From positions 1 to 59,243 of the forward strand of contig SIBX01000001.1 of the NCBI GenBank assembly GCA_009694925.1: a DNA stretch of 59,243 bases, read 5' to 3'. The translations under genes and the position numbers were made by a program. This stretch comes from Minisyncoccota bacterium (GTDB lineage Bacteria; Patescibacteriota; Minisyncoccia; UBA6257; 1-14-0-10-40-38). Below the pieces are notes generated by a model, which saw only the letters and a list, made by a program, of their open reading frames with translations, ran no database searches and had not been told where the DNA came from. Below, in pieces: positions 2,637 to 47,008 of this stretch (position 1 is its first letter; every line of letters starts with the position of its first letter).

Positions 2637-3911
2637 ATGAAGAATTTTGTTTCAAAAATTAAAAGTTACGTAAATTCCAGCTACAAAGCATTTTTTCAAA
2701 TAATTATAAGCGTCTTTATAATTTTAGGAGTCTATTATATCGGTTTTATTTTTGGAACCAGGCACCCGAAGCAGATTGTTGTTGAGGGAATAAAAAATAT
2801 GACAGACAGCGACATTAAAGCTGATATGGGAATATTTTGGGAAGCATTTCAAAAATTAAGAGTTAATCATTACGATTCAGATAAAACAACTGAAAAAGAT
2901 TTTGTTTACGGAGCTATTTCCGGGCTTGCCAGCACCTTCGGAGATCCTAATACGGTTTTTTTTGAACCCGTAGAATCAAAAAAATTTAAAGATGATATTT
3001 CTGGATCATTTGGTGGAATAGGTGCAGAAATAGGAATTAAAGAAGGATCCTTAATGATTGTGGCTCCTATTAAAGACTCTCCGTCCGACAGGGCAGGATT
3101 AAAGCCCGGTGACAGGATTTTTAAAATTGAAGGAAAAATTACTTCCGAAATGACCGTTCCAGAAGCGGTAAATGTCATAAGGGGTAAGATTGGCACTCAA
3201 GTTAATCTTTCTATATATAGAGATACTTGGGCGGCTCCAAAAGAATTTTCTATCACCAGAGAAGAAATAGTCTTGCCAAATCTAGAGTCAAAAATGCTTG
3301 ACGATAAAATTATGTATATGAGACTGCATAATTTTAACGAAAAAAGCGTATCGCAATTTTCTAAAGCTGCTTCAGAATTCTCTAATCAAGGAGGCAAGGG
3401 TTTGATTTTTGACTTAAGAGGAAATCCAGGAGGATATCTTCAGGTTGCGGTTGATCTTGCTGGTTGGTTCATAAAAAATGGATCTCTAGTTGTGACTCAG
3501 GACTATAAAAATTCTATGGATTTCGGTTTTCATTCAAACGGCAACGAATTTTTCTTAAATACGCCAGTTGTATTATTACTAGATCAAGGCTCGGCTTCTG
3601 CTTCTGAAATTTTAGCTGGAGCATTAAAATTTAACAGGCCAGATATAAAAATAGTCGGCGCCAAAAGTTTTGGAAAAGGAACAGTTCAAGATTTAGAAGA
3701 TTTATCAGATGGTTCTCAGTTAAAAGTTACTATTGCACACTGGATAATGCCAAACGGAACAAGTATTGAAAAAAACGGCATAGCTCCAGATTATGAGGTT
3801 CAGATTTTAGACGATGATATAAAAAATAAAAACGATGCTCAGATGAATAAAGCTCTAGAAGTTTTAAAATTAGAAATGTTTGGAACTTCTACTACGGCTA
3901 AAGTCCAATAA
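2637..3911 (+). CDS. carboxy-terminal processing (S41, tail-specific) protease with PDZ domain
   Basis: N-terminal TM segment, GGIGAEIG, a PDZ-like PGDRIFKIEG segment, DLRGNPGG and GSASASEILAGAL motifs. ATG at 2637 preferred over TTG at 2619. Confidence 0.88.
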   Translation: MKNFVSKIKSYVNSSYKAFFQIIISVFIILGVYYIGFIFGTRHPKQIVVEGIKNMTDSDIKADMGIFWEAFQKLRVNHYDSDKTTEKDFVYGAISGLASTFGDPNTVFFEPVESKKFKDDISGSFGGIGAEIGIKEGSLMIVAPIKDSPSDRAGLKPGDRIFKIEGKITSEMTVPEAVNVIRGKIGTQVNLSIYRDTWAAPKEFSITREEIVLPNLESKMLDDKIMYMRLHNFNEKSVSQFSKAASEFSNQGGKGLIFDLRGNPGGYLQVAVDLAGWFIKNGSLVVTQDYKNSMDFGFHSNGNEFFLNTPVVLLLDQGSASASEILAGALKFNRPDIKIVGAKSFGKGTVQDLEDLSDGSQLKVTIAHWIMPNGTSIEKNGIAPDYEVQILDDDIKNKNDAQMNKALEVLKLEMFGTSTTAKVQ

Positions 3912-3917
3912 AAATTA

Positions 3918-3952
3918 CTATGGCCTAAAGCCTAATCGCCTAGGGCCTAATT
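3918..3952 (+). repeat. CTAnnGC heptamer array
   Basis: ctatggc ctaaagc ctaatcgc ctagggc ctaatta, lying between the S41 protease gene and rplI. Confidence 0.55.
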
Positions 3953-3958
3953 AAAACC

Positions 3959-4384
3959 ATGAAAATATTACTATTGGAAAACGTCAAAGGAATAGGTAAA
4001 AAAATGGAAGTGAAAGAAGTTAAGGACGGCTATGCCAAAAATTTCCTTATAGCCAAAAACCTTGCCACGCCGGCAAGTGGAGAGTCTTTATCTATTAAGC
4101 ACGGCTATGAAGAATCCAAAAAAAGCGACTTAGCTAAAAGAAAAGAAATGTCAGAAAAAGTTAAATCGTTAGTTTTAGAATTTCCAGTCAAAGTTGGTTC
4201 CAAGGGAGAAGTTTTTGAAAGCGTCAGCGAAAAAGATATTGAAAAATCTTTGAAAGCTAAAGGAATAGACGGGTTTAAGATAAATCTACCCCACCACATC
4301 AAAGTTTTAGGCGAACATTCTGTCGCTCTAAATTTCGGTAAAGAATTTAAAAGCTCTGTGAAAATTATTTTAAAGGGTAAGTGA
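3959..4384 (+). CDS. rplI: 50S ribosomal protein L9
   Basis: MKILLLENVKGIGKKMEVKEVKDGYAKNFLI is a typical L9 N-terminus. Size 141 aa. Confidence 0.9.
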   Translation: MKILLLENVKGIGKKMEVKEVKDGYAKNFLIAKNLATPASGESLSIKHGYEESKKSDLAKRKEMSEKVKSLVLEFPVKVGSKGEVFESVSEKDIEKSLKAKGIDGFKINLPHHIKVLGEHSVALNFGKEFKSSVKIILKGK

Positions 4385-4790: not shown

Positions 4791-5513
4791 ATGGCGTCAA
4801 ATCAATCAAGATTAGTATTCGACATAGAAACGATAGGGGAAGATTTCTCAAAAATAGACAAAACAACCCAAGATAACTTAACTAATTGGATTAAACGTGA
4901 AGCAGAAGACAAGGATGATTACGAACGAATGTTGGACGACATTAAAAATGGCTTAGGATTCTCGCCTTTGACCGGAGAGATAGTCGCTATAGGCGTTCTA
5001 GACATTGATAAGGATAAGGGCGGTGTTTACTACCAATCACCAGATTTAAAATCAGATAAATTTGAAGAAGATGGAATTATGTATGAGCCAATGGACGAAG
5101 CCGGTATTTTAAAGAAGTTTTGGGACATAGCTTCTAAATATAGTGTCTTTGCCACATTTAACGGCCGGGCCTTCGACGTTCCATTTATTATGGCGCGTTC
5201 TGCGGTTAAGAAAGTTAAGCCAACCAAAAATCTAATGTTTAGTCGTTATCTTTATCAACAACATTCAGATTCTATTCATATAGATCTTTGCGATCAACTT
5301 TCTTTTCAGGGAGCCGTTAGAAAAAAGGGAAGTCTTCATTTGTGGAGTAGAGCGCTTGGAATCAAAAGTCCTAAAGCCAGCGGAATTACCGGAGATGATG
5401 TTGGTTTCTTATTTAAAAAGAAAAAATATCTGGATATTGCCCGTTACAATGTCGGCGACTTAAAAGCCACTAAAGAACTTTTTAAAGTTTGGGAGGAATA
5501 TTTCAATATCTAA
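4791..5513 (+). CDS. predicted 3'-5' exonuclease, RNase H-like/DEDDy fold (PolB-exo-like)
   Basis: LVFDIETIG (ExoI), FNGRAFDVPF (ExoII) and YNVGDL (ExoIII-like) motifs. Confidence 0.65.
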   Translation: MASNQSRLVFDIETIGEDFSKIDKTTQDNLTNWIKREAEDKDDYERMLDDIKNGLGFSPLTGEIVAIGVLDIDKDKGGVYYQSPDLKSDKFEEDGIMYEPMDEAGILKKFWDIASKYSVFATFNGRAFDVPFIMARSAVKKVKPTKNLMFSRYLYQQHSDSIHIDLCDQLSFQGAVRKKGSLHLWSRALGIKSPKASGITGDDVGFLFKKKKYLDIARYNVGDLKATKELFKVWEEYFNI

Positions 5514-5558
5514 TCCGCAGTGTTAATAATTTTAAAGCCTAATTCCTCATATATTAAT

Positions 5559-7529
5559 ATGAATATAATTAAAAAATTCGGCTTTCTAATCCTTTTTATG
5601 GGGATTTTAGTTTTACCAAATATTACCAATGGTCAATCCAGTAATCTTGGGTTAATTTCAGATATAATAACTTCCTTAAATGCAATAACCGGACAAGTTT
5701 CAAAATTAGAAAACGAAATTTCTAATGTAAAGAAAGAAATAAATAATGTAATGGGATTCGTAGGAAATATTGCTTTATCTACTCAAGATTTATCAGTATT
5801 TATTACTCCCGAGAATGTGATAATTAATAGAAGTATGTCTCTTGGGTCGCGCGGAAAAGAGGTTAAACAATTACAAGAATGCTTAAAAAATATGGGATTT
5901 TTTCCGGATAATCAAGAAATAACAGAATATTATGGAAAAACTACAGAAGGCGCGGTAATTAAGTTTCAGGAGGTAGAGGGAATAATTTCATTAAAAGATG
6001 ACAGTGGAAAAGGAAAATTTGGCCCCAAAACCAGCGCCTCAATAGCTAAATCTTGCGCGAAAAATACAATTATTGCTCCAACCGGCACATCAAGCACCTC
6101 AACATTGCCGATTAAAAATCCTATTAAATACAGCCCCGCTTCTTCATTCTCGCCAGCCTTTCCTGCTCCAAATCCACTAACTTCAACGCCGCCAGACTTA
6201 ATTCCTTTTAACCTTAACGCAGCAAGCCCATCTTCAGGCGTGTGGGATTTTGCTGGGACAATAGTTAATATCGGAAATTCATCTTCAAACATAGGTCAAA
6301 CCAAATTAAGAATAGATCTATTAAGTGATGGAACATGGGACATATTACCATCTAATCAATCAACAAATTCAATCGCTCCTAGAGCTTTTGAAATTGAACA
6401 ATGGAAAAATTTAGCTATAACTTCTGTAGGTACTCACAAATATGAAGTATGTGCAGATGATCTAAATACCACAACGGAATCAAATGAACTAAATAACTGC
6501 ACTTCATCAAGCTTTATTATTTATCCTCCTATCGGAACCCTAACAGCAAGCGTTGATAGCATAATTCCTGCAGAACAGCAATTACTTCTTGGATCGGTTG
6601 GCGTTTCTTTGGGTCAATTTAAATTCACAGCAAATAGCATTGAAGATATAAGAGTTGATACATTAAGAATAACCGCAACAACCTCCGTTAGCTCTCCTTT
6701 TACTTTTACTAATCTTCAATTTTATGATGGGGCTACTAAAATTGGTCCGATTGGAAGTCCATTGGTTGCCACTTCAACGTCATTTTATATGTCGGATTTT
6801 TCCTTTGGAAATTCAATGATTATTCCAAAGAACGTAACTAAGACATTCACCTTGAGGGGAGATATTTCTTCTTATGCAACTTCTCCAAGTTCTCATAATA
6901 AATTTTATAATTTTCAAATTAACTCAGCCAACACTTCTCCTAATCTTGTCGGTGATCTAAAGGGATATGGAATAACTTCCAGTTTTCAGGTTCCAGTCTC
7001 AGCAGTACCGACAACCCTGCAAGCAAACACCCAGCACACGTTAAGAACAAAATTAACCCCCTCTATGAGCACCTTAGGAGCAACATCTAATAGAGTCAGA
7101 AGTGCTAATGATGATATTTCAAAGCTAACACTTGGCGTGAATGGAGATACTGGAGCAGAATTTAAGTCTGTTAATTTCCTATTTTCCGGAAAAGCCATCC
7201 CAAATTCAACAACTATTTATGTTGCCTTAGTGGATGCTTCTAGTGGATCAACATTAGTTTCTACGAATATAAAAACATCAATCGCTACGTCGTCTGGGGT
7301 TAATCTTGTTCTCCCAACTCCATACGTTATAAGTAATGGACTATCTCACGATTTCAAGTTAAGAGTAGATTCTTCAAATTTTGCAAATGGTACAGGCAGC
7401 GATAGTCTGTCTTGGCAATTAGCTTCGACTTCTGCAATTCTTTGGGCAGCACAAGGGAATTCTTCAATTGAAAGCATAGGACTAGAAGCAAGAATTATTC
7501 CGATGACTAATACGGTTTCTTATCAGTAA
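5559..7529 (+). CDS. secreted protein with peptidoglycan-binding (PG_binding_1-like) domain and long Ser/Thr-rich beta-rich region
   Basis: Signal-like MNIIKKFGFLILFMGILVLPNITNG. GSRGKEVKQLQECLKNMGFFPD...GKTTEGAVIKFQ resembles a PG-binding repeat. ATG 5559 preferred over GTG 5520. Confidence 0.7.
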   Translation: MNIIKKFGFLILFMGILVLPNITNGQSSNLGLISDIITSLNAITGQVSKLENEISNVKKEINNVMGFVGNIALSTQDLSVFITPENVIINRSMSLGSRGKEVKQLQECLKNMGFFPDNQEITEYYGKTTEGAVIKFQEVEGIISLKDDSGKGKFGPKTSASIAKSCAKNTIIAPTGTSSTSTLPIKNPIKYSPASSFSPAFPAPNPLTSTPPDLIPFNLNAASPSSGVWDFAGTIVNIGNSSSNIGQTKLRIDLLSDGTWDILPSNQSTNSIAPRAFEIEQWKNLAITSVGTHKYEVCADDLNTTTESNELNNCTSSSFIIYPPIGTLTASVDSIIPAEQQLLLGSVGVSLGQFKFTANSIEDIRVDTLRITATTSVSSPFTFTNLQFYDGATKIGPIGSPLVATSTSFYMSDFSFGNSMIIPKNVTKTFTLRGDISSYATSPSSHNKFYNFQINSANTSPNLVGDLKGYGITSSFQVPVSAVPTTLQANTQHTLRTKLTPSMSTLGATSNRVRSANDDISKLTLGVNGDTGAEFKSVNFLFSGKAIPNSTTIYVALVDASSGSTLVSTNIKTSIATSSGVNLVLPTPYVISNGLSHDFKLRVDSSNFANGTGSDSLSWQLASTSAILWAAQGNSSIESIGLEARIIPMTNTVSYQ

Positions 7530-7534
7530 AAATT

Positions 7535-7564
7535 AAAATCTCTTAGCTTTAGCTAAGAGATTTT
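7535..7564 (+). terminator. intrinsic terminator after the 5559..7529 gene
   Basis: aaaatctcttagc-ttta-gctaagagatttt, a perfect 13-bp stem whose 3' arm ends in a T-run. Confidence 0.75.
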
Positions 7565-7575
7565 AATTAACGAAT

Positions 7576-7791: not shown

Positions 7792-8004
7792 TCAACTAAG
7801 GATTGTAACACTCCCGTTGGGCTGGAAATATGGCTCGCAGTCCGTATTCATCCTGTGTCCAAGAACTGCGCCGCACTGAGGACAGGTCACATTGGAATGA
7901 TCCCAGCATTGGCAGTTTTGGACAGTGCACCGGTCAAATGTGCCAACCCAGGAACAGGTGCACATGATCCTGGTCTTCAGCTCACATTCCTCTTTTACCG
8001 CCAT
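7792..8004 (-). CDS. GC-rich orphan micro-protein, 70 aa, 9 Cys (zinc-ribbon-like)
   Basis: GGAGGTG lies 5 nt upstream of ATG 8004. Sequence MAVKEECELKTRIMCTCSWVGTFDRCTVQNCQCWDHSNVTCPQCGAVLGH... has CxC, CxC and CxxC pairs. Own promoter and hairpin. Confidence 0.55.
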   Translation of the reverse strand: MAVKEECELKTRIMCTCSWVGTFDRCTVQNCQCWDHSNVTCPQCGAVLGHRMNTDCEPYFQPNGSVTILS

Positions 8005-8046
8005 TCTGTCACCTCCCAAACTTAGAGATAGGAAGCCTCTCTTAAA

Positions 8047-8107: not shown

Positions 8108-8113
8108 TCTCAA

Positions 8114-8474
8114 TGTCGCTTAGGTGATTACGCAATACCTTAAAAATATTGTGAGGAAAGTCTGGACTCCTATCTCGCGAGAAATCGCGGGTAAACGTAC
8201 CGGTTAAAAGCCGGCTAAGTCAGAAAGTAATTTCTGGTTTAAGAGGTGCGAAAAGTGACGCCCAAAGACGAAAGAATTTGGGAGTCCGCTTGCGGACTAA
8301 TCTCTTCTATATTGAAGGAAGAGAGTGCAACGGCTAAATTCCTTACGAGGTGCAAGATCGTGCTCTAATTTAAAAGTTAGAGAGAATCGCTTGAGCTTGA
8401 AAGTAATTTCAGGCCTAGATAAATTATCATCATCCATTTGCAAGAATGGCACAGAATCCGGCTTATTAGCGACA
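8114..8474 (+). ncRNA. rnpB: RNase P RNA, bacterial type A
   Basis: GAGGAAAGTCTGGACTC (P4 5' strand, 8153-) and ACAGAATCCGGCTTAT (P4 3' strand, 8451-). P1 pairs tgtcgct (8114-8120) with agcgaca (8468-8474). A terminator follows. Confidence 0.9.
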
Positions 8475-8483
8475 AAAACAATA

Positions 8484-8603: not shown

Positions 8604-8789
8604 TTGGTGGAAAGGGGAAGGCGTTTGGCTGTCGGTCTGTTTCGGATGGTGATCGGAGTCTTTTCAAAGGCTCCAGCGCATGAGGGAGAAGAGAGGACAA
8701 CGGCTCTCAGGGTCTGTCTCGTGGCAGCCCTCGGTACGGTCCTCATCATGTATTTCAGCGAGGGTGGGCACATGTTCCATCCGAACTGA
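8604..8789 (+). CDS. GC-rich orphan ORF, 61 aa, two hydrophobic segments (tentative)
   Basis: GGAG (8594-8597) lies 6 nt before TTG or 9 nt before GTG. Sequence MVERGRRLAVGLFRMVIGVFSK...ALRVCLVAALGTVLIMYF. A strong terminator starts 28 nt after the stop. Non-ATG start and weak promoter. Confidence 0.35.
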   Translation: MVERGRRLAVGLFRMVIGVFSKAPAHEGEERTTALRVCLVAALGTVLIMYFSEGGHMFHPN

Positions 8790-8929: not shown

Positions 8930-9151
8930 TTATTGAATACTGCCGGATTGAAAAAGTATCGCTTCTGGCCTCAGCTTGTCTGCTCTTTCTTTGCAGATTA
9001 CAGAGCAAAATGGCCTTTTGCATTTGCCGACATAATAGAGGCTGTCGACTGGGATTACTGCTTTACATTCAGTGCAATCGTGTCTGACTTTGGCCATATG
9101 ATGTTCTGGAACCAGATCATCGTCTTCGTATCCTCCAGCGCATCCGCACAT
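8930..9151 (-). CDS. GC-rich orphan micro-protein, 73 aa, FCS/TRASH-like zinc finger
   Basis: GGGAGGAA lies 8 nt upstream of the ATG. ...HDCTECKAVIPVDSLYYVGKCKRPFCSVICKE fits C-x2-C-x19-FCS-x2-C. Confidence 0.55.
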   Translation of the reverse strand: MCGCAGGYEDDDLVPEHHMAKVRHDCTECKAVIPVDSLYYVGKCKRPFCSVICKERADKLRPEAILFQSGSIQ

Positions 9152-9200
9152 CAGAGTTTCCTCCCATGTTTGTGACCGCCATAAGACCAGTGCTTTCTAT

Positions 9201-9314: not shown

Positions 9315-9530
9315 TCAGGCGGTGGCGACGGCGAGTTGACGCTCGTCGACCATCTCCGTGATCGTCGGAGCCGAGAAGCGCCGGATGAGATCCAGTCCGC
9401 CCGGCTTCCTGCCACCAGCCGCGATGATCATCTGCGCGATGAGCCCGCGAGTGGTCGGAGCACCCCGGAAAGTCCGGATCTCGCAACGGCACTCACCGCT
9501 CACCCTGCATGCCCTTGAGTCGCAAATCAT
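9315..9530 (-). CDS. GC-rich orphan micro-protein, 71 aa, N-terminal Cys cluster
   Basis: MICDSRACRVSGECRCEIRTF... (C-x4-C-x5-C-x-C). Weak SD GGGGAAAG 6 nt upstream. Consensus promoter and terminator hairpins flank it. Confidence 0.45.
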   Translation of the reverse strand: MICDSRACRVSGECRCEIRTFRGAPTTRGLIAQMIIAAGGRKPGGLDLIRRFSAPTITEMVDERQLAVATA

Positions 9531-9622
9531 TTCAGTCTTTCCCCGATTGCCATTCTAGCCTCGTGTTACCGAGCTAGAGGACTGTGAGTGAGTAGGGCCA
9601 ATCCCTTATCACTTACTTTATC

Positions 9623-9652
9623 ATTATATCATACGATACATCTATTTGTCAA
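9623..9652 (-). promoter_or_regulatory. near-consensus promoter of island C
   Basis: Minus strand: TTGACA (9652-9647), 18 nt spacer, TATAAT (9628-9623). Implies an approximately 85-nt GC-rich leader with hairpins before the ATG at 9530. Confidence 0.65.
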
Positions 9653-9666
9653 TATATAAAGCCTAT

Positions 9667-11928: not shown

Positions 11929-11957
11929 TTGACAAAATTTTTTATTGGGAGTAAATT
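11929..11957 (+). promoter_or_regulatory. predicted promoter of island D
   Basis: TTGACA, 17 nt spacer, TAAATT. Followed by an approximately 100-nt GC-rich leader. Confidence 0.5.
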
Positions 11958-12068
11958 AATATTTAGTACACGATTCGGTGTGTAAGCCGGATCAACAACA
12001 GAGATTCGCAATTCGAGAGAGGGAGGGTTTCTCTTTAGCCCGCTTTTGTGGGCAGAAGGAATTTTCTC

Positions 12069-12584
12069 ATGAAGGCCTTGATGTTGGTTCTGGCGGTGCT
12101 CCTCGTGGGAGCCTCGGCAGGAGCTGTCTCTTCGGCAACGTCGGCGGAACCGACCACTCTGAAGATGGTCGATCCGTTCGTCTCGGCGACCGTCACGGTG
12201 AACGGCGTCGTGGTGGAGGTGGAGTTCGTGGATCTCTCCACGGGCCTCACGCTCACGACGACGAATCCGGCTCTCGTCGCGATGGCTAGCGATTACGTGA
12301 GCGATCCGGATACGTCATCTGCACGCTTCACCAAGGATGTCAGCGACGGCAACGGGGGCAAGAAGAAGGTCGAGATGACCATCACGGTCACCAAGCGATC
12401 CGAAGAGTCCGGCAAGGAATTCCTCAGGCGCTTCGAGAAGCGTTGCGAGGACGCCATCTCTTCTGGTTGGGAGCCCGTCGTCACGCCGACGTCGAACGTC
12501 TACGACTCGAACCGGCCGGTCCTCGACGTCGTCCATCTCTACGACAGGGACGACCCGCCTTCGGACATCGGCAACGCTGTCTGA
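12069..12584 (+). CDS. GC-rich orphan secreted protein (171 aa)
   Basis: GAAGGAA lies 8 nt upstream of the ATG. Signal peptide MKALMLVLAVLLVGASAGAVSSATSA. Codons overwhelmingly end in G/C. A strong terminator follows directly. Confidence 0.7.
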   Translation: MKALMLVLAVLLVGASAGAVSSATSAEPTTLKMVDPFVSATVTVNGVVVEVEFVDLSTGLTLTTTNPALVAMASDYVSDPDTSSARFTKDVSDGNGGKKKVEMTITVTKRSEESGKEFLRRFEKRCEDAISSGWEPVVTPTSNVYDSNRPVLDVVHLYDRDDPPSDIGNAV

Positions 12585-12589
12585 ATGCC

Positions 12590-12637
12590 GACCCCCACTT
12601 TGCAAGCCAAGACTTGCGAGTGGGGGTCATTTTTTTA
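12590..12637 (+). terminator. intrinsic terminator of island D
   Basis: gacccccact-(19 nt)-agtgggggtc followed by a, T7. Confidence 0.85.
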
Positions 12638-12654
12638 TTTCATACTTTTTGTTT

Positions 12655-12684
12655 TTACTCCTACGATATTTTTCTTGGTATAAT
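12655..12684 (+). promoter_or_regulatory. msrA promoter with extended -10, leaderless geometry
   Basis: TTACTC, 18 nt spacer, TGgTATAAT. Only 6 nt separate the -10 box from ATG 12691, and there is no SD. Confidence 0.55.
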
Positions 12685-12690
12685 ACATCT

Positions 12691-13179
12691 ATGGATCAAA
12701 AATCAGAAAAATTAGAAATAGCCACCTTCGCCGCCGGTTGTTTCTGGGGAGTTGAAGATAAATTTATGCAGACTAATGGAGTAAAAAACACTGAAGTTGG
12801 TTATACTGGTGGCCATCTTAAAAGCGCAACCTATAAAGATGTTTGCTCTGGCACAACTGGTCACGCTGAGACCGTTAATGTTTATTTTGATCCAAAACTA
12901 ATTTCATATGGAGAGCTTCTAAATATTTTTTGGCTCCTTCACGATCCAACTCAATTCAACCGCCAAGGACCAGATTATGGCAGTCAATATCGCTCGGCAA
13001 TTTTTTATCACGACGAAAATCAGAAAACTTTAGCCGAAAAATCAAAATCTCAACTAGATCAAAGCAATAAATATCCTAAAAAAATAGTCACAGAAATAAC
13101 CAGAGCCACAGAATTCTATAAGGCCGAAGAATATCACCAACAATATATGAAGAAAACCGGTCTTAAGGTTTGTCATTAA
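12691..13179 (+). CDS. msrA: peptide methionine sulfoxide reductase A
   Basis: ATFAAGCFWGVE active-site motif, GHAETV and YHQQY. Confidence 0.92.
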   Translation: MDQKSEKLEIATFAAGCFWGVEDKFMQTNGVKNTEVGYTGGHLKSATYKDVCSGTTGHAETVNVYFDPKLISYGELLNIFWLLHDPTQFNRQGPDYGSQYRSAIFYHDENQKTLAEKSKSQLDQSNKYPKKIVTEITRATEFYKAEEYHQQYMKKTGLKVCH

Positions 13180-13835: not shown

Positions 13836-13859
13836 AAATCAAAGATTTACATCTTTAAA

Positions 13860-13889
13860 CTATGGCCTATCTACTATGGCCTATGGCCT
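13860..13889 (+). repeat. four tandem heptamers CTATGGC/CTATCTA/CTATGGC/CTATGGC followed by a T-run
   Basis: Near-identical to the array at 53001-53030 (aactatggccta..ctatggcctatggcctttttt). Confidence 0.7.
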
Positions 13890-13912
13890 TTTTTTATTGT
13901 AAGATTTATTTA

Positions 13913-16055: not shown

Positions 16056-17510
16056 ATGGATGCACTTAGAGAAGAAAGAATCAAAAAACTAAATTCACTT
16101 CAGAATGCTGGAATAGACGCATATCCTCCAAGAATAAAAAGAGATTTTGAAATAAATTTAGTTATTTCTGATTTTGATAAATTTATTAAAGCTAAGAAAA
16201 AAATTTCACTAGTCGGGCGCCTAGTCGGCTTAAGAGTTCAGGGGGCATTATTTTTTGCTGACCTCAAGGACGAATCAGGTAAAATACAAATTTTAGGTAA
16301 AAAAGATAATTTAAAAAATTTTGATATTTTTAAAGACACTATAGATATTGGAGACTTTATCGAAGTGTCCGGTATTCCTTTTGTTACAAAAAGAGGAGAG
16401 AAAAGCCTAGAAGCAAAATCTATCAGAATAATAGTTAAAAGCTTGCGCCCAATCCCTTCTGATTGGTATGGGATTTCTGATATTGAGCTAAGATTAAGAA
16501 AAAGATATTTAGATATTTTAGCCAGTGCTGAAATAAAAGAATTATTTAAAAAGAAAAGTATTTTTTGGGCAACTTTCAGAGACGAACTCAAAAAAGAAGG
16601 ATTTTTAGAAGTTGAAACTCCTATTTTAGAAACTACTCCAGGAGGGGCAGATGCAGAACCGTTTAAAACTCATCATAATGCCCTAGACACAGATTTTTAT
16701 TTAAGAATTTCTTTAGAGATTTCTTTGAAAAAATTATTAGTTGCCGGATATGAAAAAGTCTTTGAGATCGGCAGGATTTTTAGAAACGAAGGCATAGACG
16801 CCGAACACTTACAAGACTATACCCAGATAGAATTCTATTGGGCCTATAAAGATTACAACGATTTAATGAAATTCATTGAACCGCTTTATAAGAAAATTAT
16901 AAAAAATACTTTCGGAAGTTTAAAAACTGAATGGCATGGGCAAAAAATAGATTGGGGCAAAAAATGGCCAAAAATTTCCTATTACGATCTTTTTAGAGAA
17001 AAGTTAGGCATCGATTTAGAAAAAGCTTCAACTGCCGACCTAGAGAAGAAAGTCAGAATTTTAAATCTAAAAATAGAGACAAATTCAAATCGCGGAAGAT
17101 TAATAGATGTTCTTTTCAAAACAATTCGCAAAGAAATTATCCAGCCAGTATTTTTAATCGACCAGCCAGCAGAACTTGAGCCATTAGCCAAGCGCAATCC
17201 AGCCTCTCCTCATAAAGTTGAAAGGATGCAGATTATTGCTTGCGGAACAGAGCTTGGTAAGGGATTTTCAGAGGCCAATGATCCGTTAGACCAGCGAGCC
17301 AGATTTGAAGAGCAGATGAAAATGAGGGAAGCCGGAGATAAAGAAGCTCAGATGTTGGACGAAGAGTTTTTAGAAGCTCTTGAATATGGAATGCCTCCAA
17401 CTGCCGGATTTGGTATTTCTGAACGCTTGTTTGCGGTTTTAGCCGACAAACCGATTCGAGAATGTGTATTTTTCCCCTTAATGAAAAGAGCTCCTAAAAA
17501 AGAAGACTAG
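16056..17510 (+). CDS. lysS: lysyl-tRNA synthetase, class II
   Basis: OB-fold N-terminus, FLEVETPIL (motif 1), RNEG, and the GFGISERL class II motif 3 region. Confidence 0.93.
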   Translation: MDALREERIKKLNSLQNAGIDAYPPRIKRDFEINLVISDFDKFIKAKKKISLVGRLVGLRVQGALFFADLKDESGKIQILGKKDNLKNFDIFKDTIDIGDFIEVSGIPFVTKRGEKSLEAKSIRIIVKSLRPIPSDWYGISDIELRLRKRYLDILASAEIKELFKKKSIFWATFRDELKKEGFLEVETPILETTPGGADAEPFKTHHNALDTDFYLRISLEISLKKLLVAGYEKVFEIGRIFRNEGIDAEHLQDYTQIEFYWAYKDYNDLMKFIEPLYKKIIKNTFGSLKTEWHGQKIDWGKKWPKISYYDLFREKLGIDLEKASTADLEKKVRILNLKIETNSNRGRLIDVLFKTIRKEIIQPVFLIDQPAELEPLAKRNPASPHKVERMQIIACGTELGKGFSEANDPLDQRARFEEQMKMREAGDKEAQMLDEEFLEALEYGMPPTAGFGISERLFAVLADKPIRECVFFPLMKRAPKKED

Positions 17511-17561: not shown

Positions 17562-17617
17562 TATGTTCTATGCGTCAAAAGGTGGCGCAAAGACAGACTT
17601 TGGTTTGGGAGATAGAA

Positions 17618-17872
17618 ATGTCTGGAAGGAAGAAGGCGGTTGGTCCAGTTGAGTCTGGGGAGACACAAGAAAAAGTCCGCAAGATCAGTTCGTGTAGGCT
17701 TTGTGAGGGAACCGGCAAGGTTCCTCTCCGTTGCGGTGGCAAGTCTGAATGTGCTTGCACTTCTTCGACTAACAAGTCGAAGCGCGCTGCACTCAATCCG
17801 AGACACCTTTCTCTGACTACTCGTGGGGCGAACTTTCACGCCCTGCAACGCGAACGTAGCCACCCGTCCTGA
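17618..17872 (+). CDS. GC-rich orphan micro-protein, 84 aa, CxxCxGxG Cys cluster
   Basis: GGGAGA lies 5 nt upstream of the ATG. ...KISSCRLCEGTGKVPLRCGGKSECACTSS. An alternative in-frame ATG at 17570 sits right at the predicted TSS (leaderless option). Confidence 0.5.
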   Translation: MSGRKKAVGPVESGETQEKVRKISSCRLCEGTGKVPLRCGGKSECACTSSTNKSKRAALNPRHLSLTTRGANFHALQRERSHPS

Positions 17873-17930: not shown

Positions 17931-17998
17931 TATAATTGATAAGTACCTCTTGTCATCCCCGAGACATCGGGGATCCAGTCAAAAAATCAATTCAAAAA

Positions 17999-19734: not shown

Positions 19735-19923
19735 TCACGAACCTCCAGCCTTCTTTTTAGGAGAACCATCTCGGAAGATAAAGAACCAAAAAAGAAATAC
19801 AACGACGGGCAACAACACAGCGCAAGTAGATAGAATGTGTTCGCTATCAAAGCGGTGAAGAACGTCAGTCGCAAAGCCCATCCAGCTGCCCGGAATTGGA
19901 CACTTACTCTCCTCCTGTGGCAT
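19735..19923 (-). CDS. GC-rich orphan small membrane protein, 62 aa (C-terminal TM helix plus basic tail)
   Basis: AAGGTGGA lies 3-4 nt upstream of the ATG. MPQEESKCPIPGSWMGFATDVLHRF...CAVLLPVVVFLFWFFIFRDGSPKKKAGGS. Confidence 0.5.
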   Translation of the reverse strand: MPQEESKCPIPGSWMGFATDVLHRFDSEHILSTCAVLLPVVVFLFWFFIFRDGSPKKKAGGS

Positions 19924-20011
19924 TTTCCACCTTTTCCTTTTCTATTTGCCAATCGGTCTGTGTGCTGTTTTTCAGTCTACGACAATATTTCAAATTATTA
20001 AAGTCTTAGAT

Positions 20012-20266
20012 AAAAAAAGAACCCGGGGCCACACTGGTTGTGTGACTACCCGGGCGCAGAACAGCCCCATTCCCTAACTTTACAAGAGATTGCGATCTTA
20101 CCTAGGATCATCATCGCAGGCGTGGATTGTCGAAAAGACCAATCTGAGCGCACTTAGGGAGACTCCGAACATAACCAGACTGAAGTTCGATCTAGTTGCA
20201 GCGTCTTGTTGCCGGCAAGGAGTCTTTTCCCCTTATATCTAGCAAAGACCAGAGGGAACTTTCTGC
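20012..20266 (-). ncRNA. ORF-less GC-rich structured RNA, about 250 nt (independent sRNA or terminator-ending leader of the 62-aa ORF)
   Basis: Its promoter is at 20273-20300. Helices 20160-20166/20219-20225 and 20091-20096/20113-20118. Minus-strand terminator cccggg..cacac-aacca-gtgtg..cccggg followed by T7 (20012-20056). No ORF of 60 aa or more. Confidence 0.5.
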
Positions 20267-20300: not shown

Positions 20301-20324
20301 ACTATGTCATTTTATGGTTAATAT
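20295..20324 (+). promoter_or_regulatory. predicted ddl promoter, leaderless geometry
   Basis: TTACAA, 18 nt spacer, TAATAT, then only 5 nt to ATG 20330. No SD. Confidence 0.45.
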
Positions 20325-20329
20325 ATTCA

Positions 20330-21385
20330 ATGAATAAAAAACTAAAAGTCTCCTTACTTTTCGGAGGAAAATCAGTTGAACACGAAGTTTCCATACTTTC
20401 CGCTAAAAATGTTTTTGAAGCAATTAATAAGGATAAGTATGATGTTTCCTTAATCGGTATTGATAAATCAGGTTATTGGCGATTCTTTACTGACGCAAAA
20501 ATTCTAGAGCAAAAAAGTATCAAGTCAATTGCCAAAAACCACAATGGATTCTTAAATCCAGACTGCGGAAAAGTACTAGTAAATTCAGACGTTGTTTTTC
20601 CCGTTCTTCACGGGACTTATGGCGAAGACGGCTCGGTACAGGGATTTTTAAAATTAATAAATAAGCCGTTTGTTGGTGCCGGTGTTTTGGGTTCGGCGCT
20701 CGGGATGGATAAGGAAGTTCAAAAACGGCTCTTAATCCAAGCGGAGATTACAACCGCTAAATTTTTAACTTATCAATCGTCAGAACTATCAACCATTAAC
20801 TATCACGCCATCACTACCAATCTGGACTTACCTTTTTTCATTAAGCCGGCTAATTCCGGATCGTCAGTAGGTGCATCTAAAGTTAAAAATGAGCCTGAAT
20901 TTATGCCAGCTATTTATGAGGCATTTAAATATGATAATAAAATTTTAATTGAAGAATTTATAGACGGCAGGGAAATAGAATGTTCGGTTTTGGGCAATAG
21001 CGAGCCAATCGCATCAATTCCCGGCGAGGTTGTGTCTAATCATGAATTTTATTCTTATGAAGCAAAATACTTAGACGAAAACGGAGCCGTTTTAAAAATT
21101 CCAGCCAAATTAAATAAGATAACAGCTAAAAAAATTCAAGAATTAGCAATTAAAACTTTTAAAGTATTAGAATGTTCAAGTATGGGACGCGTTGATTTCT
21201 TTTTAAAAAGAGATGGTCAGATTTTTATAAACGAGATTAATACTATTCCAGGATTTACCTCAATCAGTATGTATCCCAAACTTTGGGAAGCAACTGGCAT
21301 TAGTTATTCAGAATTAATAGATAGGCTGATTGAATTGGCTATAGAAAAATTTGAAAAGGATAGTAAGATAAAAACTTCTTATTAA
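20330..21385 (+). CDS. ddl: D-alanine--D-alanine ligase
   Basis: LFGGKSVEHEVS, HGTYGEDGSVQG, and ATP-grasp NEINTIPGFT motifs. Confidence 0.92.
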   Translation: MNKKLKVSLLFGGKSVEHEVSILSAKNVFEAINKDKYDVSLIGIDKSGYWRFFTDAKILEQKSIKSIAKNHNGFLNPDCGKVLVNSDVVFPVLHGTYGEDGSVQGFLKLINKPFVGAGVLGSALGMDKEVQKRLLIQAEITTAKFLTYQSSELSTINYHAITTNLDLPFFIKPANSGSSVGASKVKNEPEFMPAIYEAFKYDNKILIEEFIDGREIECSVLGNSEPIASIPGEVVSNHEFYSYEAKYLDENGAVLKIPAKLNKITAKKIQELAIKTFKVLECSSMGRVDFFLKRDGQIFINEINTIPGFTSISMYPKLWEATGISYSELIDRLIELAIEKFEKDSKIKTSY

Positions 21386-21490: not shown

Positions 21491-22009
21491 CTAGCTCGCG
21501 CGCTTCTCCGATCGGGTCGAGGGGATTTTCCCGACTCGACGCAGTTCCTTGATGGCGCTCTTGCGAACCATGAGCGGCGCCCTGGATCGATCCAGTCGAT
21601 CGAGCTCCGCTATGGTCCGGCAAACCGAACCCAAGAGCAGTTTTTCGACTCCCTGGAGGCGAAGCTTCTCGGCTTCTGCATCTGCGAGCTTCACCCTTGT
21701 CTCCGCCAATATTGCCCTGTCATCCTCCAGTCGCCGGATGATTCCGACAATGTGCACGATCTGCTCTTCGGTCGGCGGACCCTGGAGAAGACCGAGAGTC
21801 GTCTGGACCTCGCCAGCCAAGCTCTCGTCGGTCTGCTCGAACTCCGGATCTTTGAAAACCGGAATTCTTGTGACCGTAACCTGTTCCGGGGTCAAAGAGA
21901 TTTGAACATTTCTCACGGTTCTCTCCCATTGTTCCGGCTTCATCCCAAATAGGGAATCAGCTTGGTTGTTCTGTTTTTGGTGCCGAGATAACTCCCAGCT
22001 ACCTTCCAT
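21491..22009 (-). CDS. GC-rich orphan protein (172 aa as listed; true start uncertain)
   Basis: A long ORF spans the whole island with a helical/coiled-coil-like C-terminal half (RLEDDRAILAETRVKLADAEAEKLRLQGVEKLL). The listed ATG 22009 is only 1 nt from the -10 box, so Met23 (21943) may be the real start. Confidence 0.55.
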   Translation of the reverse strand: MEGSWELSRHQKQNNQADSLFGMKPEQWERTVRNVQISLTPEQVTVTRIPVFKDPEFEQTDESLAGEVQTTLGLLQGPPTEEQIVHIVGIIRRLEDDRAILAETRVKLADAEAEKLRLQGVEKLLLGSVCRTIAELDRLDRSRAPLMVRKSAIKELRRVGKIPSTRSEKRAS

Positions 22010-24539: not shown

Positions 24540-24830
24540 GAAGTAAGTCGAGAAGTCGCAAGTCAGCTTTTGGACGCTAAGCTTTCCTTCTTTGCCAGCA
24601 TCCAAAAGTCCGCAAATGGGCTCTTCTTCGCACAAGAGTTGAATTTCTCGTTTCATTCGGTCTCTCAATCCTCGGGCGACCACTGGCTAACCGACTAGAC
24701 CCGGTAAGCCGATACGGTGAGCAATCTCTGGGACAATGTAAGAGTTAATGAACCAGGGAGCGAGAAAAATTGTGCTTCTAGGCTTATCGGCTTCGGGTTG
24801 AGGCAACTCCTCCGCCCGAAGCCTCTTTAA
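24540..24830 (+). ncRNA. ORF-less GC-rich structured RNA, about 290 nt (sRNA or leader upstream of ychF)
   Basis: Helix 24567-24574/24601-24608. Terminator ggcttcggg-(17 nt)-cccgaagcc followed by tcttt (24789-24830). 24706-24714 can pair with 24785-24793, which overlaps the terminator 5' arm. Confidence 0.5.
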
Positions 24831-33426: not shown

Positions 33427-33483
33427 GGTTTGTTTAACTTTTTAGCTTGAAATTTTATTTTAGGTTAAAAAGTTAAACAAACC
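33427..33483. repeat. perfect 17-bp AT-rich inverted repeat just upstream of the J2 SD
   Basis: ggtttgtttaacttttt-(23 nt)-aaaaagttaaacaaacc. No T-run on either side. It ends 10 nt before AAGGAG. Confidence 0.7.
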
Positions 33484-33508
33484 CGAAACCAAGAAGGAGC
33501 AAGAGACA

Positions 33509-34234
33509 ATGGCGAACTTCGCATTGAGCAAGACCTTTCAGATGATCGTTGACTACGATCTTCGACCGGGAGAGCTGATTGCTTATTCCGGTGTCCAGGA
33601 AGTCGCCAATTGGCAAGAGATGGATAGCGCGTTCTATCATCTCGCCAACGACCGCAGCAAGTTCCCTTGCGGGAACGAGCACCTGGTCCGGTATGAGGCG
33701 CGTGTGAGCACTCGCCAACCCTTCGTCAGCGGAGACGAGAGGCAGGTTCTGGTTGATGCGGCTATCGTTACGTTGAACGAGCCGATCAACGAGCGCCGAG
33801 ATCCTCCACGGGAGAGCGATGACCTCCACGACTTCGTCCAAGAAGTCGAGCGGATGGGCTATCGCCAAGCCAACTTCCGAGAAGTTCTAACTCTCGGCAG
33901 CGTGGCACTTCTTCCCGAGGAGCTTCTGACGCCCTTCGCCTTGATTGGTAGCAGTTTCCATGTTGACTGGAAACTGTCCAGGCAGGTGTTGGGCGAGAGC
34001 TGGGGAGGGAAGTTTCCGCTCCTGGCTCTTGGCGCTGGATGGGTCGACTGCACTGGAGGAGAAGTTGTCACTCCCTGCTTCGAGTTCGTCCGTGGCCGTC
34101 GCGCTCTGTCGTTCCAGGAGTACTTGTGGTGCGGTGTTGAGATCAGCACCAGGTACCGCATCCTCGTTATCAAGAGGACAGACGGACCCGCGACGATTGT
34201 GGCCAACCCACTTCCTCGCGACCGGAGTGTCTAA
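33509..34234 (+). CDS. GC-rich orphan protein (241 aa)
   Basis: AAGGAG lies 9 nt upstream of the ATG. The ORF spans the island with G/C-ending codons. Hairpins follow the stop. No family recognised by eye. Confidence 0.7.
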   Translation: MANFALSKTFQMIVDYDLRPGELIAYSGVQEVANWQEMDSAFYHLANDRSKFPCGNEHLVRYEARVSTRQPFVSGDERQVLVDAAIVTLNEPINERRDPPRESDDLHDFVQEVERMGYRQANFREVLTLGSVALLPEELLTPFALIGSSFHVDWKLSRQVLGESWGGKFPLLALGAGWVDCTGGEVVTPCFEFVRGRRALSFQEYLWCGVEISTRYRILVIKRTDGPATIVANPLPRDRSV

Positions 34235-36763: not shown

Positions 36764-36852
36764 TCTAGCAAGTCTTATTGTTTTAGTGAAGTTTGTTTTT
36801 TAAACTAACAACCCAACTTTTAATCTAATAAGCGAGTGTTAAACTTAATCTT

Positions 36853-38088
36853 ATGGAGAGAAAATCGTTTTTAAGCATATTAATTATCGCGGTATTTTTT
36901 TCTATATATTTTTTATTTATTAAAAGTGAAAAAACACTAGCTCCGATAGAAATCGAACTCGATAATTCTACTCAGAACAAAAAAGAATTATTAGAAGGTA
37001 AGTTAAGTAATTCCATAAAAATAACAGAACCCAAAAAAGAAATTGACCAAAGTTTAATATTAACAATAAACACCAGCTCAAATCACATAGAAACCCCAGA
37101 AGAAGTTCATGGGCTTTATTTTACCTCCTTATTTTTTAATCAAAAATATTTTTTAGATTTTGTTCGTAATATGAAAACATCTAACAAAATTAATACGTTA
37201 ATAATAGACGTAAAAGATTTAGACGGATTTGTTGCATATGATTCAAAAGTTAAAGAAGTTATAGACTATAAAACTAAAAAAAATATTATTAAGGATATTA
37301 AAAAGAAAATAGAAGATCTTCATAAAGAAGGTTTTTATCTTATAGCCAGAATCAATGTTTTTAATGATCAGGCAGTTGCTCAGTCTCGCCCAGAGCTAAC
37401 TTTAAAATCTAATTCCGGAGAGCCGTGGAAAACAGATAAGGGGGCGTTCTGGTTAAATCCAGACAGCGAAAAAGTTTGGATATATAACACCAATCTGGGA
37501 ATAGAGGCCTATAATTTAGGTTTCGACGAAATTAATTTTGACTATATAAGATTCCCTTCAGAGGGGAACATGGAAGATTTAAATTTAGGAGAAATAACCG
37601 GTTATTCTTCAACTATTCAAAGATTTTCTTCTTTTTTAAGAAATCAATTTAAAAACATAAAAATATCTGCCGATATTTTTGCATACTCCTTAATAGAAAA
37701 AAATAATTTAGGAATCGGACAGAAATATGAAGATTTTTTCCCGTATTTTGATTATATTTGCCCAATGATGTATCCGTCTCATTATAATAAAAATTTTTTA
37801 GGTTTTGAAAATTCTGCGCTTCACCCATATGAAGTTGTAAGATATTCTTTAATAATTGGGAAAAATCGTGCATTAGATTTTTTTAAAAACAATCCAGACA
37901 AAAATCTATCATTTAAAATGAGGCCTTGGTTTCAATCGTTTAGTCTGGGTGATTATTACGATAAAAATATGATTCAAAGCCAAATTACAGCCCTTAATGA
38001 TGAGGTCTCCATAAATAAAGATTTTTGGAACGGATGGTTATTATGGGATGCATCAAATATTTATAGTAATTTTTCTGCTTTAAAATAA
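36853..38088 (+). CDS. putative TIM-barrel glycoside-hydrolase-like protein (GHL/DUF4015-like), membrane anchored
   Basis: N-terminal TM segment, IIDVKD.DG, INFDYIRFP and CPMMYPSHY resemble the GHL family. Tentative. Confidence 0.5.
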   Translation: MERKSFLSILIIAVFFSIYFLFIKSEKTLAPIEIELDNSTQNKKELLEGKLSNSIKITEPKKEIDQSLILTINTSSNHIETPEEVHGLYFTSLFFNQKYFLDFVRNMKTSNKINTLIIDVKDLDGFVAYDSKVKEVIDYKTKKNIIKDIKKKIEDLHKEGFYLIARINVFNDQAVAQSRPELTLKSNSGEPWKTDKGAFWLNPDSEKVWIYNTNLGIEAYNLGFDEINFDYIRFPSEGNMEDLNLGEITGYSSTIQRFSSFLRNQFKNIKISADIFAYSLIEKNNLGIGQKYEDFFPYFDYICPMMYPSHYNKNFLGFENSALHPYEVVRYSLIIGKNRALDFFKNNPDKNLSFKMRPWFQSFSLGDYYDKNMIQSQITALNDEVSINKDFWNGWLLWDASNIYSNFSALK

Positions 38089-46377: not shown

Positions 46378-46826
46378 AAAAAAACGGCTCCGAGAGAAGT
46401 GCATGCGACTGTGTCGCAATTACAACCCCCGGAGCCTTACTCGACAACCCTTTCTTCACCTATTGGGGATTCCTATCAGCCTGGTTCGAAACCCTAGCTG
46501 ATCTGATGCCGCCATTGCCCAAAAACGCGGGCGTTCGGTGAACAGGTACGAGAGACTGCTGATCTCAGCCAATTCTCGACGAGCGGGTTATGAGAGCGGG
46601 GATGGTGGCTTGGTTTCAGCCAAGCCGGGGTCCTTTTCCTCAAACGTGACAACCCCCCACTAAGTCGAGAAAAACCGATCGCAATCTCTGTGTCCCTTTC
46701 TGGAGTTGTTTACCCCATAGGAGAAACCTGAGCCAGGCTTGCTTTTTACGAACAGATACACTGGCTTTCTCTGTTCGTTACCGCACTTTTACTCTAGTTG
46801 AGATCACGGCAACTCTCAACCATTAC
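46378..46826 (-). ncRNA. large ORF-less GC-rich structured RNA candidate, about 450 nt
   Basis: A consensus promoter lies at 46833-46861. Terminator ggctccg-(37 nt)-cggagcc followed by g, T7 on the minus strand (46378-46436). Helices 46573-46580/46664-46671, 46607-46613/46620-46626, 46750-46755/46771-46776 and 46797-46803/46814-46820. No internal ORF of 60 aa or more; the only listed ORF touching the interval (46250..46459, minus) merely enters its terminator end from outside. Confidence 0.55.
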
Positions 46827-46900: not shown

Positions 46901-46967
46901 ACCCAGTAGTAGAAATTAGACAGTTGACTCTGTCGCCCTGCGACAAGTCTAATTTTCACTACTGGGT
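46901..46967. repeat. hairpin repeat E2 (GTAGT-hairpin family) at the right edge of island K
   Basis: acccagtagtagaaattagac-(25 nt with gtcgc-cct-gcgac)-gtctaattttcactactgggt. It is the reverse-orientation homologue of E1 and carries compensatory stem changes. Confidence 0.7.
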
Positions 46968-46979
46968 AAGCATTTTCAA

Positions 46980-47008
46980 TTGAAAATTATTCTCTAAAGT
47001 GATACTAT
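46980..47008 (+). promoter_or_regulatory. predicted gltX promoter (extended -10), leaderless geometry
   Basis: TTGAAA, 17 nt spacer ending in TGa, TACTAT, then 8 nt to ATG 47017. No SD. Confidence 0.55.

Follow-up and report, generated by a model that had tools for sequence, protein, structure and literature searches.

Leaderless genes and genes led by a Shine-Dalgarno (SD) site coexist in Actinobacteria and Deinococcus-Thermus, a pattern assigned to group C of the GeneMarkS-2 classification (PMC6028130, PMC3898074). A Pribnow box at the start serves the same program as the signature of bacterial leaderless genes (PMC6028130). Bacteroidetes, placed in group B (PMC6028130), have near-absent SD sites and rare SD-bearing genes; the anti-SD is reported to be sequestered in Flavobacterium johnsoniae (PMC7797042), and bS21, bS18 and bS6 occlude it in Flavobacteria. 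Here we analyse a stretch of 59,243 bp at 35% GC (the window; contig SIBX01000001.1), which belongs to the metagenome-assembled genome (MAG) of an AT-rich, Parcubacteria-type member of the candidate phyla radiation (CPR). About 12 short stretches at 45% GC or more (the islands) lie among its AT-rich housekeeping genes (the host genes). Two classes of start regions coexist in the window and the split between them follows base composition: most open reading frames (ORFs) of the islands are led by strong SD sites, and host genes have none. An earlier reading of the bare sequence (the sequence-only reading) had noted this split and suggested that the islands evolved under, or are read by, a different initiation mode from the host genes.

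The window shares with group C a Pribnow box 6-8 nt before the first genes of operons and a second set of genes with SD sites at similar spacing, and one population of ribosomes would read both sets, as it does there. It departs from that group in that the non-leaderless core genes of group C, operon-internal ones included, use SD sites, whereas none do here; SD use is confined here to a small, compositionally distinct and lineage-specific class, and the genome is that of an AT-rich CPR bacterium, unlike the high-GC Actinobacteria. The likeness to Bacteroidetes lies in the almost complete absence of SD sites from core genes, in starts that are A-rich, G-poor and unstructured, and in the few genes with a strong SD. 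No reliance on leaderless mRNAs is reported for Bacteroidetes, however, whereas a prominent Pribnow box occupies positions -12 to -7 here, and their SD-bearing exceptions are a few conserved genes such as rpsU and are not known to form a family of orphan cassettes rich in GC. Phage morons, or genomic islets, are autonomous units of promoter, ORF and terminator that deviate in GC content from the conserved genes between which they sit. The islands are likewise self-contained, with their own promoters and terminators and a deviant GC content, and can differ between close relatives, but they lie in a cellular chromosome between housekeeping genes and have mostly vertical orthologues, and no phage context, donors or mobility genes were found for them. 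Parcubacteria with a reduced or absent anti-SD belong to the same broad lineage, and core SD sites are absent here and in the sampled CPR relatives; the study of these Parcubacteria covers 16S sequences only and describes no conserved SD-led gene class (PMC9297842). A literature search found no paper describing SD use tied to such a gene class in a CPR genome. Here the two known patterns come together, and SD use is cleanly linked to a compositional, evolutionary and architectural class of genes in a CPR genome.

The eight SD motifs named by the sequence-only reading are all in place beside start codons of ORFs in GC-rich stretches. On the forward strand these are GAAGGAA (12055-12061, 7 nt before ATG 12069), GGGAGA (17607-17612, 5 nt before ATG 17618), AGGAGGG (33031-33037, 10 nt before ATG 33048) and AAGGAG (33494-33499, 9 nt before ATG 33509); on the reverse strand, GGAGGTG (8010-8016, 5 nt before ATG 8004), GGGAGGAA (9158-9165, 6 nt before ATG 9151), AAGGTGG (19927-19933, 3 nt before ATG 19923) and AGGAGG (59084-59089). 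The last motif had been paired with ATG 59082, from which it is separated by 1 nt; ATG 59073, at a distance of 10 nt, is the likelier start. SD strength was scored as the duplex energy (ViennaRNA duplexfold) of positions -20 to -1 against CACCUCCUUU, the canonical anti-SD; the window and the fetched loci hold no 16S of this genome. Island starts average -8.6 kcal/mol, and six of ten reach -8 kcal/mol or better. The AT-rich genes of the window average -0.5 kcal/mol, and none of 47 reaches even -6 kcal/mol, a value attained by 7.7% of windows of random host sequence. Because GC-rich DNA yields SD-like strings by chance, the background for island starts was measured inside the islands, where 5.9% of positions on both strands score -8 kcal/mol or better (binomial P ~7e-6 for six of ten). 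The contrast between strong SD sites at island ORFs and none at host genes, as reported from the sequence alone, is thus real and well above chance. An unbiased scan looked for a strong SD with a start codon after it and an open frame of 30 codons or more; all its matches outside host coding sequences fell in GC-rich islands.

The host starts carry a signature of their own. For five genes the sequence-only reading had given the spacing between a -10 hexamer and the ATG; the spacings are correct and Pfam confirms the gene names. Four of them lie on the forward strand: msrA (PMSR; 12691-13179), which is AT-rich and without SD, has TGgTATAAT at 12676-12684, 6 nt before ATG 12691; ddl has TAATAT 5 nt before ATG 20330 (20319-20332); gltX (47017-48489) has TGaTACTAT at 47000-47008, 8 nt before ATG 47017 (47000-47019); and ychF has TAAAAT 9 nt before ATG 24869 (24854-24871). 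The fifth, typA/bipA on the reverse strand, has TAAAAT 9 nt before ATG 32920 (32918-32935). The extended -10 form TGnTAnnnT, which has 114 sites in the window (both strands, 118 kb), ends 6-8 nt before the ATG in eight of the 47 host genes scored; about 0.14-0.5 such cases would be expected. Besides msrA and gltX, it precedes the following forward-strand genes: an S41 peptidase gene with a leaderless-type start (2622-2639; TGtTATCAT, 6 nt, ATG 2637), the gene at ATG 25963 (25948-25965; TGaTATAAT, 6 nt; arrangement kept in the relative described below), a Pif1-like helicase gene (29417-29434; TGaTAAGAT, 6 nt, ATG 29432), the gene at ATG 36853 (36837-36855; TGtTAAACT, 7 nt), the gene of a small GIY-YIG protein (54895-54912; TGcTAGAAT, 6 nt, ATG 54910) and a pseudouridine synthase gene (57534-57552; TGaTACAGT, 7 nt, ATG 57550). 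These eight genes and the five named examples all start with ATG, which was preferred in the choice of host starts, and all have an anti-SD duplex weaker than -3 kcal/mol.

The same signal emerges from the starts taken together. A pooled set of 49 operon-leading AT-rich genes, some of the window and the others of two 20-kb stretches of the relative's genome, has 19 strong -10 hexamers (five or six matches out of six) at a distance of 6-9 nt from the ATG; positions further upstream give a background of 0.63 each. Over the 47 host starts, the position matrix has T at 0.53 in position -12, A at 0.53 in -11, A at 0.64 in -10 and T at 0.64 in -7. A stands at 0.47-0.64 from -11 to -1, and G falls to 2-6% from -12 to -1, against 17.7% genome-wide. 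AT-richness as the sole cause of the absent SD sites was rejected, since G is depleted upstream of starts far below its genomic level and AT-rich Firmicutes rely heavily on SD. The arrangement of -10 box and ATG is kept in the relative at msrA (there TGtTATAAT, 7 nt, ATG), alr, a 522-aa gene, an Ig-domain gene and the pseudouridine synthase gene. Altogether, about 40-55% of promoter-proximal (operon-leading) genes have a -10 box that ends 5-9 nt before the ATG.

The earlier description of host genes as leaderless fits this large subset of operon-leading genes and does not extend to the rest. About 40% of genes are operon-internal, with gaps of -14 to +26 nt and without SD, and therefore cannot be leaderless; rpmA and the genes at 42555 and 17999 have putative leaders of about 40, 19 and 60 nt, respectively, and no SD either, although the one at 17999 is of leaderless type in the relative. 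By default, host genes initiate independently of SD, and leaderless initiation is only one part of this. The gene of a cytidylyltransferase has a leaderless-type start in the relative (TGTATAAT, 8 nt, ATG; locus L001, 11843-11848), while in the window a 55-nt insertion with a hairpin (17941-17998) made it leadered, still without SD. The longest ORF of adk starts at 13862, inside a repeat of the motif ATGGCCTA; its P-loop follows directly after ATG 13913, which is therefore probably the true start, again of leaderless type, with TAAGAT 7 nt upstream. The motif ATGGCCTA (or ATAGCCTA) occurs in 11 copies against 3.9 expected and clusters at 2565-2615, 3920-3955, 13852-13894 and 52993-53035, just upstream of the -10 box and start of the S41 peptidase gene, rplI, adk and a 255-aa gene. 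One 43-nt element among the clusters is repeated at 91% identity. These clusters may be an operator or a promoter-associated repeat.

The organism and its relatives were placed by homology. Protein matches trace the window to an NCBI MAG labelled "Candidatus Pacebacteria bacterium" (locus tags EXS49_). The window encodes bL9 (rplI, 3959-4384), and the presence of this gene favours a Parcubacteria-type organism over Microgenomates or Saccharibacteria (Tsurumaki et al. 2022, PMC9297842). The class II lysyl-tRNA synthetase (LysRS) encoded by lysS (16056-17510, Pfam) is 92% identical to the copy in a relative MAG (GCA_964543265.1; locus L001, contig CAZIWN010000001.1); the next-nearest LysRS, at 64% identity, is that of Wolfebacteria-like Parcubacteria. 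For the island ORFs, the window was compared with L001, with L064, which is another stretch of the relative's contig, and with L063 (an AT-rich contig with a homologue of the gene at 12069). In blastn alignments, the housekeeping genes of L001 are collinear with those of the window at 75-86% DNA identity and the islands appear as alignment gaps, although L001 is likewise GC-rich in the same intergenic slots. An assembly chimera is ruled out by this independent assembly, which has GC-rich units in the same slots between conserved flanks. The collinearity is broken at 5513-7573, which encodes a low-complexity protein of 656-669 aa with a peptidoglycan-binding domain; the gene is missing from the relative, where positions 2216 and 2220 of L001 abut.

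Strong SD sites recur throughout the comparison set. The window, L001, L064 and L063, which represent three genomes, together have 22 island ORFs, all of which score -5.7 kcal/mol or better and 18 of which score -8 kcal/mol or better; GGAG is present in 16 of the 22, and the spacing to the start is 3-11 nt. A further 20 kb of the relative's genome contains seven more SD-led ORFs, as against 0-2 per 20 kb in other CPR relatives, and host genes without SD are also seen in seven CPR relatives. Orthologous island pairs keep a GGAGG-type motif whose exact letters differ, in front of ORFs that are just 40-46% identical, and the BtpA-family gene at the end of the window has an SD identical to that of the relative amid an otherwise A-rich leader. 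The conserved sites are indirect but fairly strong evidence that the ribosomes of this lineage keep a working canonical anti-SD. The conserved helix-45 string of 16S was found neither in the window nor in the 63 fetched loci, and the window has no rRNA and no genes of bS21, bS18 and bS6. One strong SD was seen in a Moranbacteria relative whose core genes are otherwise without SD: a 293-aa ORF of normal size (L006, 4945-5826), which may be MreB-like, judging from its N-terminal sequence, is preceded by AAGGAGG (-11.6 kcal/mol). Isolated SD-led core genes may thus exist elsewhere in CPR.

Both start types stand side by side in the span of about 640 nt (12056-12693) that includes an island ORF and the start of msrA. 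The island unit has a sigma-70-type promoter (11929-11957, forward strand; TTGACA, 17 nt, TAAATT), from which a GC-rich 5' leader of about 100 nt would run (11964-12068, forward; minimum free energy (MFE) -35.6 kcal/mol, z -2.9). The ORF that follows (12069-12584, forward) encodes a 171-aa protein with a signal-peptide-like N-terminus at 61% GC and 81% GC at third codon positions (GC3), and ends before an intrinsic terminator (12590-12636, forward) with a 16-bp GC-rich hairpin and a U tract (-28.8 kcal/mol, z -6.2). The only homologue of the protein among 5.8 billion proteins is that of L063, at 71% identity by BLASTP and 68% over the codon alignment, with a ratio of nonsynonymous to synonymous substitution rates (dN/dS) of 0.39. 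The contig of this homologue is AT-rich and has the homologous promoter, leader, SD (GGAAGGAG, spacing 7-8 nt) and terminator, whose hairpin is kept with changes on both arms (by eye), but the neighbouring genes are different, so the unit as a whole can move or be reshuffled. The protein belongs to no Pfam family, and its AlphaFold2 model (predicted local distance difference test score, pLDDT, 60; core ~75) has no fold match in PDB at E <=0.001. The sequence-only reading was right that GAAGGAA and the extended -10 of msrA are both present in the span, but took as its example the weakest SD of the set, one that a predicted leader hairpin pairs (probability of being unpaired 0.18). The pairing hints at regulated translation of this particular gene; the hint does not extend to a general masking of SD sites by leader hairpins, predicted accessibility being mixed across units (0.18-0.71).

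The islands differ from the host genes in their evolution as well as in their starts. Six small ORFs are orthologous to ORFs in the same slots of L001, three of them clearly (40-46% amino acid identity, z 11-18) and three marginally. By the Nei-Gojobori method, lysS, serS and the BtpA-family gene have dS of 0.93-1.05 and dN of 0.05-0.08, while for island ORFs dS is ~1.2 or saturated, dN lies at 0.47-0.63 and dN/dS is ~0.5. Island dN is therefore about ten times the housekeeping value at comparable dS, and some purifying selection still acts on the small ORFs. Given orthologues in the same slots with housekeeping-like dS, these small genes were already in place when the two genomes began to diverge. 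They are GC-rich in both lineages, which is unlike a decaying foreign composition. The second class of genes is thus one of small (50-240 aa), GC-rich (46-65%), fast-evolving, lineage-specific proteins, secreted, membrane-bound or Cys-rich, encoded at fixed intergenic slots.

An origin of the islands by horizontal transfer from GC-rich, SD-using donors, with the SD sites as baggage of the donor, has the base composition in its favour: 45-65% GC against 35%, and GC3 that rises to 0.81 while host genes stand at about 0.25. In the relative with 92% LysRS identity, two slots, one upstream of msrA and one downstream of ddl, are occupied by unrelated ORFs or cassettes; the complete 12069 unit, from promoter and leader to ORF and terminator, recurs in another genome in a different neighbourhood; Wolfebacteria-like relatives (64% LysRS identity) have no such islands, and in more distant CPR relatives GC islands are absent and SD-led ORFs almost wholly so. 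Foreign composition should, however, have decayed over the divergence recorded by the six orthologous units, of which both copies are GC-rich and SD-led. Promoters and terminators are of host type and partly conserved across genomes, and the BtpA-family gene combines an identical SD with a housekeeping rate of evolution. No shared, direct or inverted repeats flanking the islands were found in the window, no integrase and no Pfam match to mobility domains were found in island ORFs, and just one island adjoins a tRNA gene, with no tRNA-flanked structure. Searches for homologues outside the lineage returned nothing for three island proteins: the 171-aa protein and the 241-aa product of the ORF at 33509, which has no homologue at all, among 5.8 billion proteins, and the 172-aa product of the ORF at 21491-22009, without any homologue among 1.84 billion cluster representatives. 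A horizontal origin of the islands appears unlikely on this evidence, and for most units the suggestion that they evolved under a different mode, taken as a claim of foreign descent, is contradicted. The other half of that suggestion, reading by a different initiation mode, is reasonable if the modes are understood as SD-dependent and SD-independent, since a canonical, positionally constrained SD is kept in orthologues. The SD-led genes are mostly a resident, fast-evolving class in structured, leadered transcripts and not recent imports.

We regard it as probable, without great confidence, that the core genes of this organism are translated independently of SD while GC-rich, leadered accessory transcripts depend on SD/anti-SD pairing with the same ribosomes. 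Between -30 and +30, host starts have a GC content of 25% and a mean MFE of -4.1 kcal/mol, against 48% and -10.3 kcal/mol for island starts (P = 4e-5). At promoter-proximal core genes, transcription would begin at or beside the A of the start codon and yield a leaderless mRNA that ribosomes enter at the 5'-AUG. Operon-internal and leadered core genes would load ribosomes without SD, or by coupling, through starts that are G-depleted, A/U-rich and unstructured and through short or overlapping junctions. Neither route would be open to a GC-rich, leadered mRNA, and such accessory mRNAs would recruit the same ribosomes through their SD. A leader by itself does not demand an SD, since leadered core genes are translated without one; what sets the island genes apart is GC content and structure, to which we attribute, as an inference from start-region composition, their use of SD.

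Several points weigh against this SD-dependent/SD-independent division. The case for leaderless transcripts comes from promoter geometry in AT-rich DNA, and island starts were picked with the motifs already known. The large island ORF at 21491-22009 (reverse strand) has no clear SD, and GAAGGAA, the SD beside msrA, scores only -6.2 kcal/mol and is predicted to be paired in its own leader, in keeping with the mixed accessibility noted above. A functional anti-SD is deduced from the conservation of SD sites, and Tsurumaki et al. 2022 (PMC9297842) detected the anti-SD motif in no more than 48% of the 16S genes of Parcubacteria. The two slots with unrelated cassettes mean that some turnover by transfer occurs. 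Lastly, the division does not account for the high GC content (GC3 0.6-0.8) that resident, fast-evolving genes retain although their synonymous sites have each undergone about one substitution; this persistence may be due to selection for RNA structure or, where slots are prone to recombination, to biased gene conversion.

A more far-reaching form of the same division would make the GC-rich cassettes the sole users of SD/anti-SD pairing and a dedicated channel, controlled apart from the core through anti-SD availability or leader structures. The cassettes would encode small secreted, membrane and zinc-ribbon-like proteins, possibly host-interaction factors of an epibiont, and their GC-richness would be no trace of foreign origin: selection on mRNA structure, or biased gene conversion at hot spots of recombination, would actively maintain it. 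This extension strikes us as quite unlikely. We have strong doubts about the narrower proposal that the SD sites are a regulatory channel in which the availability of the anti-SD is switched, by an occluding ribosomal protein or by processing of the 16S 3' end, so that the accessory class is turned on and off together. The core avoids SD-like sequence wholly (0 of 47 starts against the 7.7% background, with G at 2-6% upstream), in the manner of Bacteroidetes with a sequestered anti-SD (PMC7797042); only one coherent gene class keeps its SD, and leader hairpins are predicted to mask some of the sites. The predicted accessibility is mixed, however, and the simpler structural explanation suffices.

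Less probable still, and very unlikely, is an artefact of chance purine runs in GC-rich DNA, spurious ORFs in non-coding RNA (ncRNA) genes, where long frames arise because stop codons are AT-rich, and TATAAT-like strings that arise by chance where spacers are AT-rich: one island or more is an ncRNA gene, several others have no convincing ORF, GC-rich islands have long ORFs on both strands and TAnnnT is common in AT-rich DNA, but SD-strength windows cover 5.9% of island positions against 60% of ORF starts, the motifs lie at 3-11 nt and are kept in orthologues although the neighbouring sequence has diverged, Cys motifs are conserved at dN/dS of 0.39-0.54 (<1), the ORFs at 12069 and 33509 have a strong codon-position GC periodicity, and the -10 signal is sharply confined to -12 to -7, its extended form exceeding expectation more than 15 times.

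The protein-coding units share a layout of host-type promoter (TTGACA-17-TATAAT), leader of 30-140 nt, SD, small ORF and intrinsic terminator, and encode Cys-rich proteins of 63-84 aa, small membrane proteins, the signal-peptide-like 171-aa protein and ORFs of 150-241 aa; a Pfam search of ten island ORFs matched the BtpA-like gene only. Cys-rich ORFs of 70 aa (7792-8016, reverse strand; ATG 8004, SD GGGAGGTG, -14.5 kcal/mol) and 73 aa (8930-9165, reverse; ATG 9151) have orthologues at L001 2441-2662 (reverse; SD AGGAGG) and 3545-3763 (reverse; SD GGGGAGGG). Between them, a small membrane-protein ORF (8625-8789, forward) with a TTG start and SD GGAAAGGGGAAGG has a marginal orthologue at L001 3241-3432. 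A 71-aa ORF (9315-9545, reverse; ATG 9530) with the weak SD GGGGAAAG has an orthologue at L001 3921-4127 (reverse) and a TTGACA-18-TGATATAAT promoter near 9623-9660 (reverse), from which a leader of about 85 nt would result. The 84-aa Cys-rich ORF at 17607-17872 (forward; ATG 17618, SD GGGAGA) shares its promoter and terminator with the relative, and its body is unalignable at the DNA level. A 62-aa membrane ORF (19735-19933, reverse; ATG 19923, SD AAGGTGG) is orthologous to L001 13575-13736 (reverse).

The orphan GC-rich ORF at 21491-22009 (reverse; 150-172 aa) is the exception of the set. ATG 22009 lies just 1 nt past a -10 hexamer, so the real start is probably downstream; the deposited product begins at residue 23. 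A 63-aa ORF (33031-33239, forward; ATG 33048, SD AGGAGGG) has its own terminator and, judged by eye, a TTGACT-17-TATTAT promoter; the 241-aa orphan that follows it (33494-34234, forward; ATG 33509, SD AAGGAG; GC 58%) has a 27-bp hairpin in its leader (33427-33483). The BtpA-family gene (58312-59089, reverse; GC 45%, SD AGGAGG at 59084-59089, likely start ATG 59073) is conserved in the relative at a housekeeping rate.

The GC-rich islands are heterogeneous and not all of them are ORFs. One is the gene of a class A RNase P RNA (8112-8480, forward), with the promoter TGGTATAAT at 8099, 5 nt upstream. The match is full-length (83 bits, E 1e-23) and falls under the Rfam gathering score of 100, so default annotation misses the gene. 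No convincing ORF is present in the GC-rich units at ~20020-20266 (reverse), 24540-24830 (forward), 29090-29385 (forward), 46400-46826 (reverse) and 53900-54200, which have terminators and strong promoters (such as TTGACA-17-TGCTATACT at 46841, reverse); in the relative, the DNA of the first two is conserved. These units are probably unrecognized structured ncRNAs; Rfam searches at permissive thresholds gave a convincing match only to RNase P RNA, besides tRNA-Gln, and none to the other ORF-poor units. A 54-nt inverted repeat (28804-28857 and 46928-46981), 76% complementary, has its arms 18 kb apart, each at the edge of a GC-rich unit and with a "cactactgggtaa"-like hairpin.

Two free-standing genes of GIY-YIG nuclease domains (27553-27819 and 54910-55161; 88 and 83 aa) are AT-rich and have leaderless-type starts; one of these small genes adjoins tRNA-Gln and a GC-rich unit. 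Two copies of a direct repeat of 102 nt, 77% identical, are present: one in the spacer upstream of a prolyl oligopeptidase gene (55320-55421), the other across the start of the pseudouridine synthase gene (57549-57650).

Gene finders that assume a single model of starts will overlook one of the two classes in CPR genomes or give it wrong starts, and the class most at risk is that of the small SD-led ORFs. The conservation of SD sites matters because published data suggest that about half of Parcubacteria are without the anti-SD motif, and this lineage would keep a working one. The resident genes that remain GC-rich in a genome at 35% GC point to a local force, which may be selection on RNA structure or biased gene conversion, and which would be relevant to the minimal genomes of symbionts.

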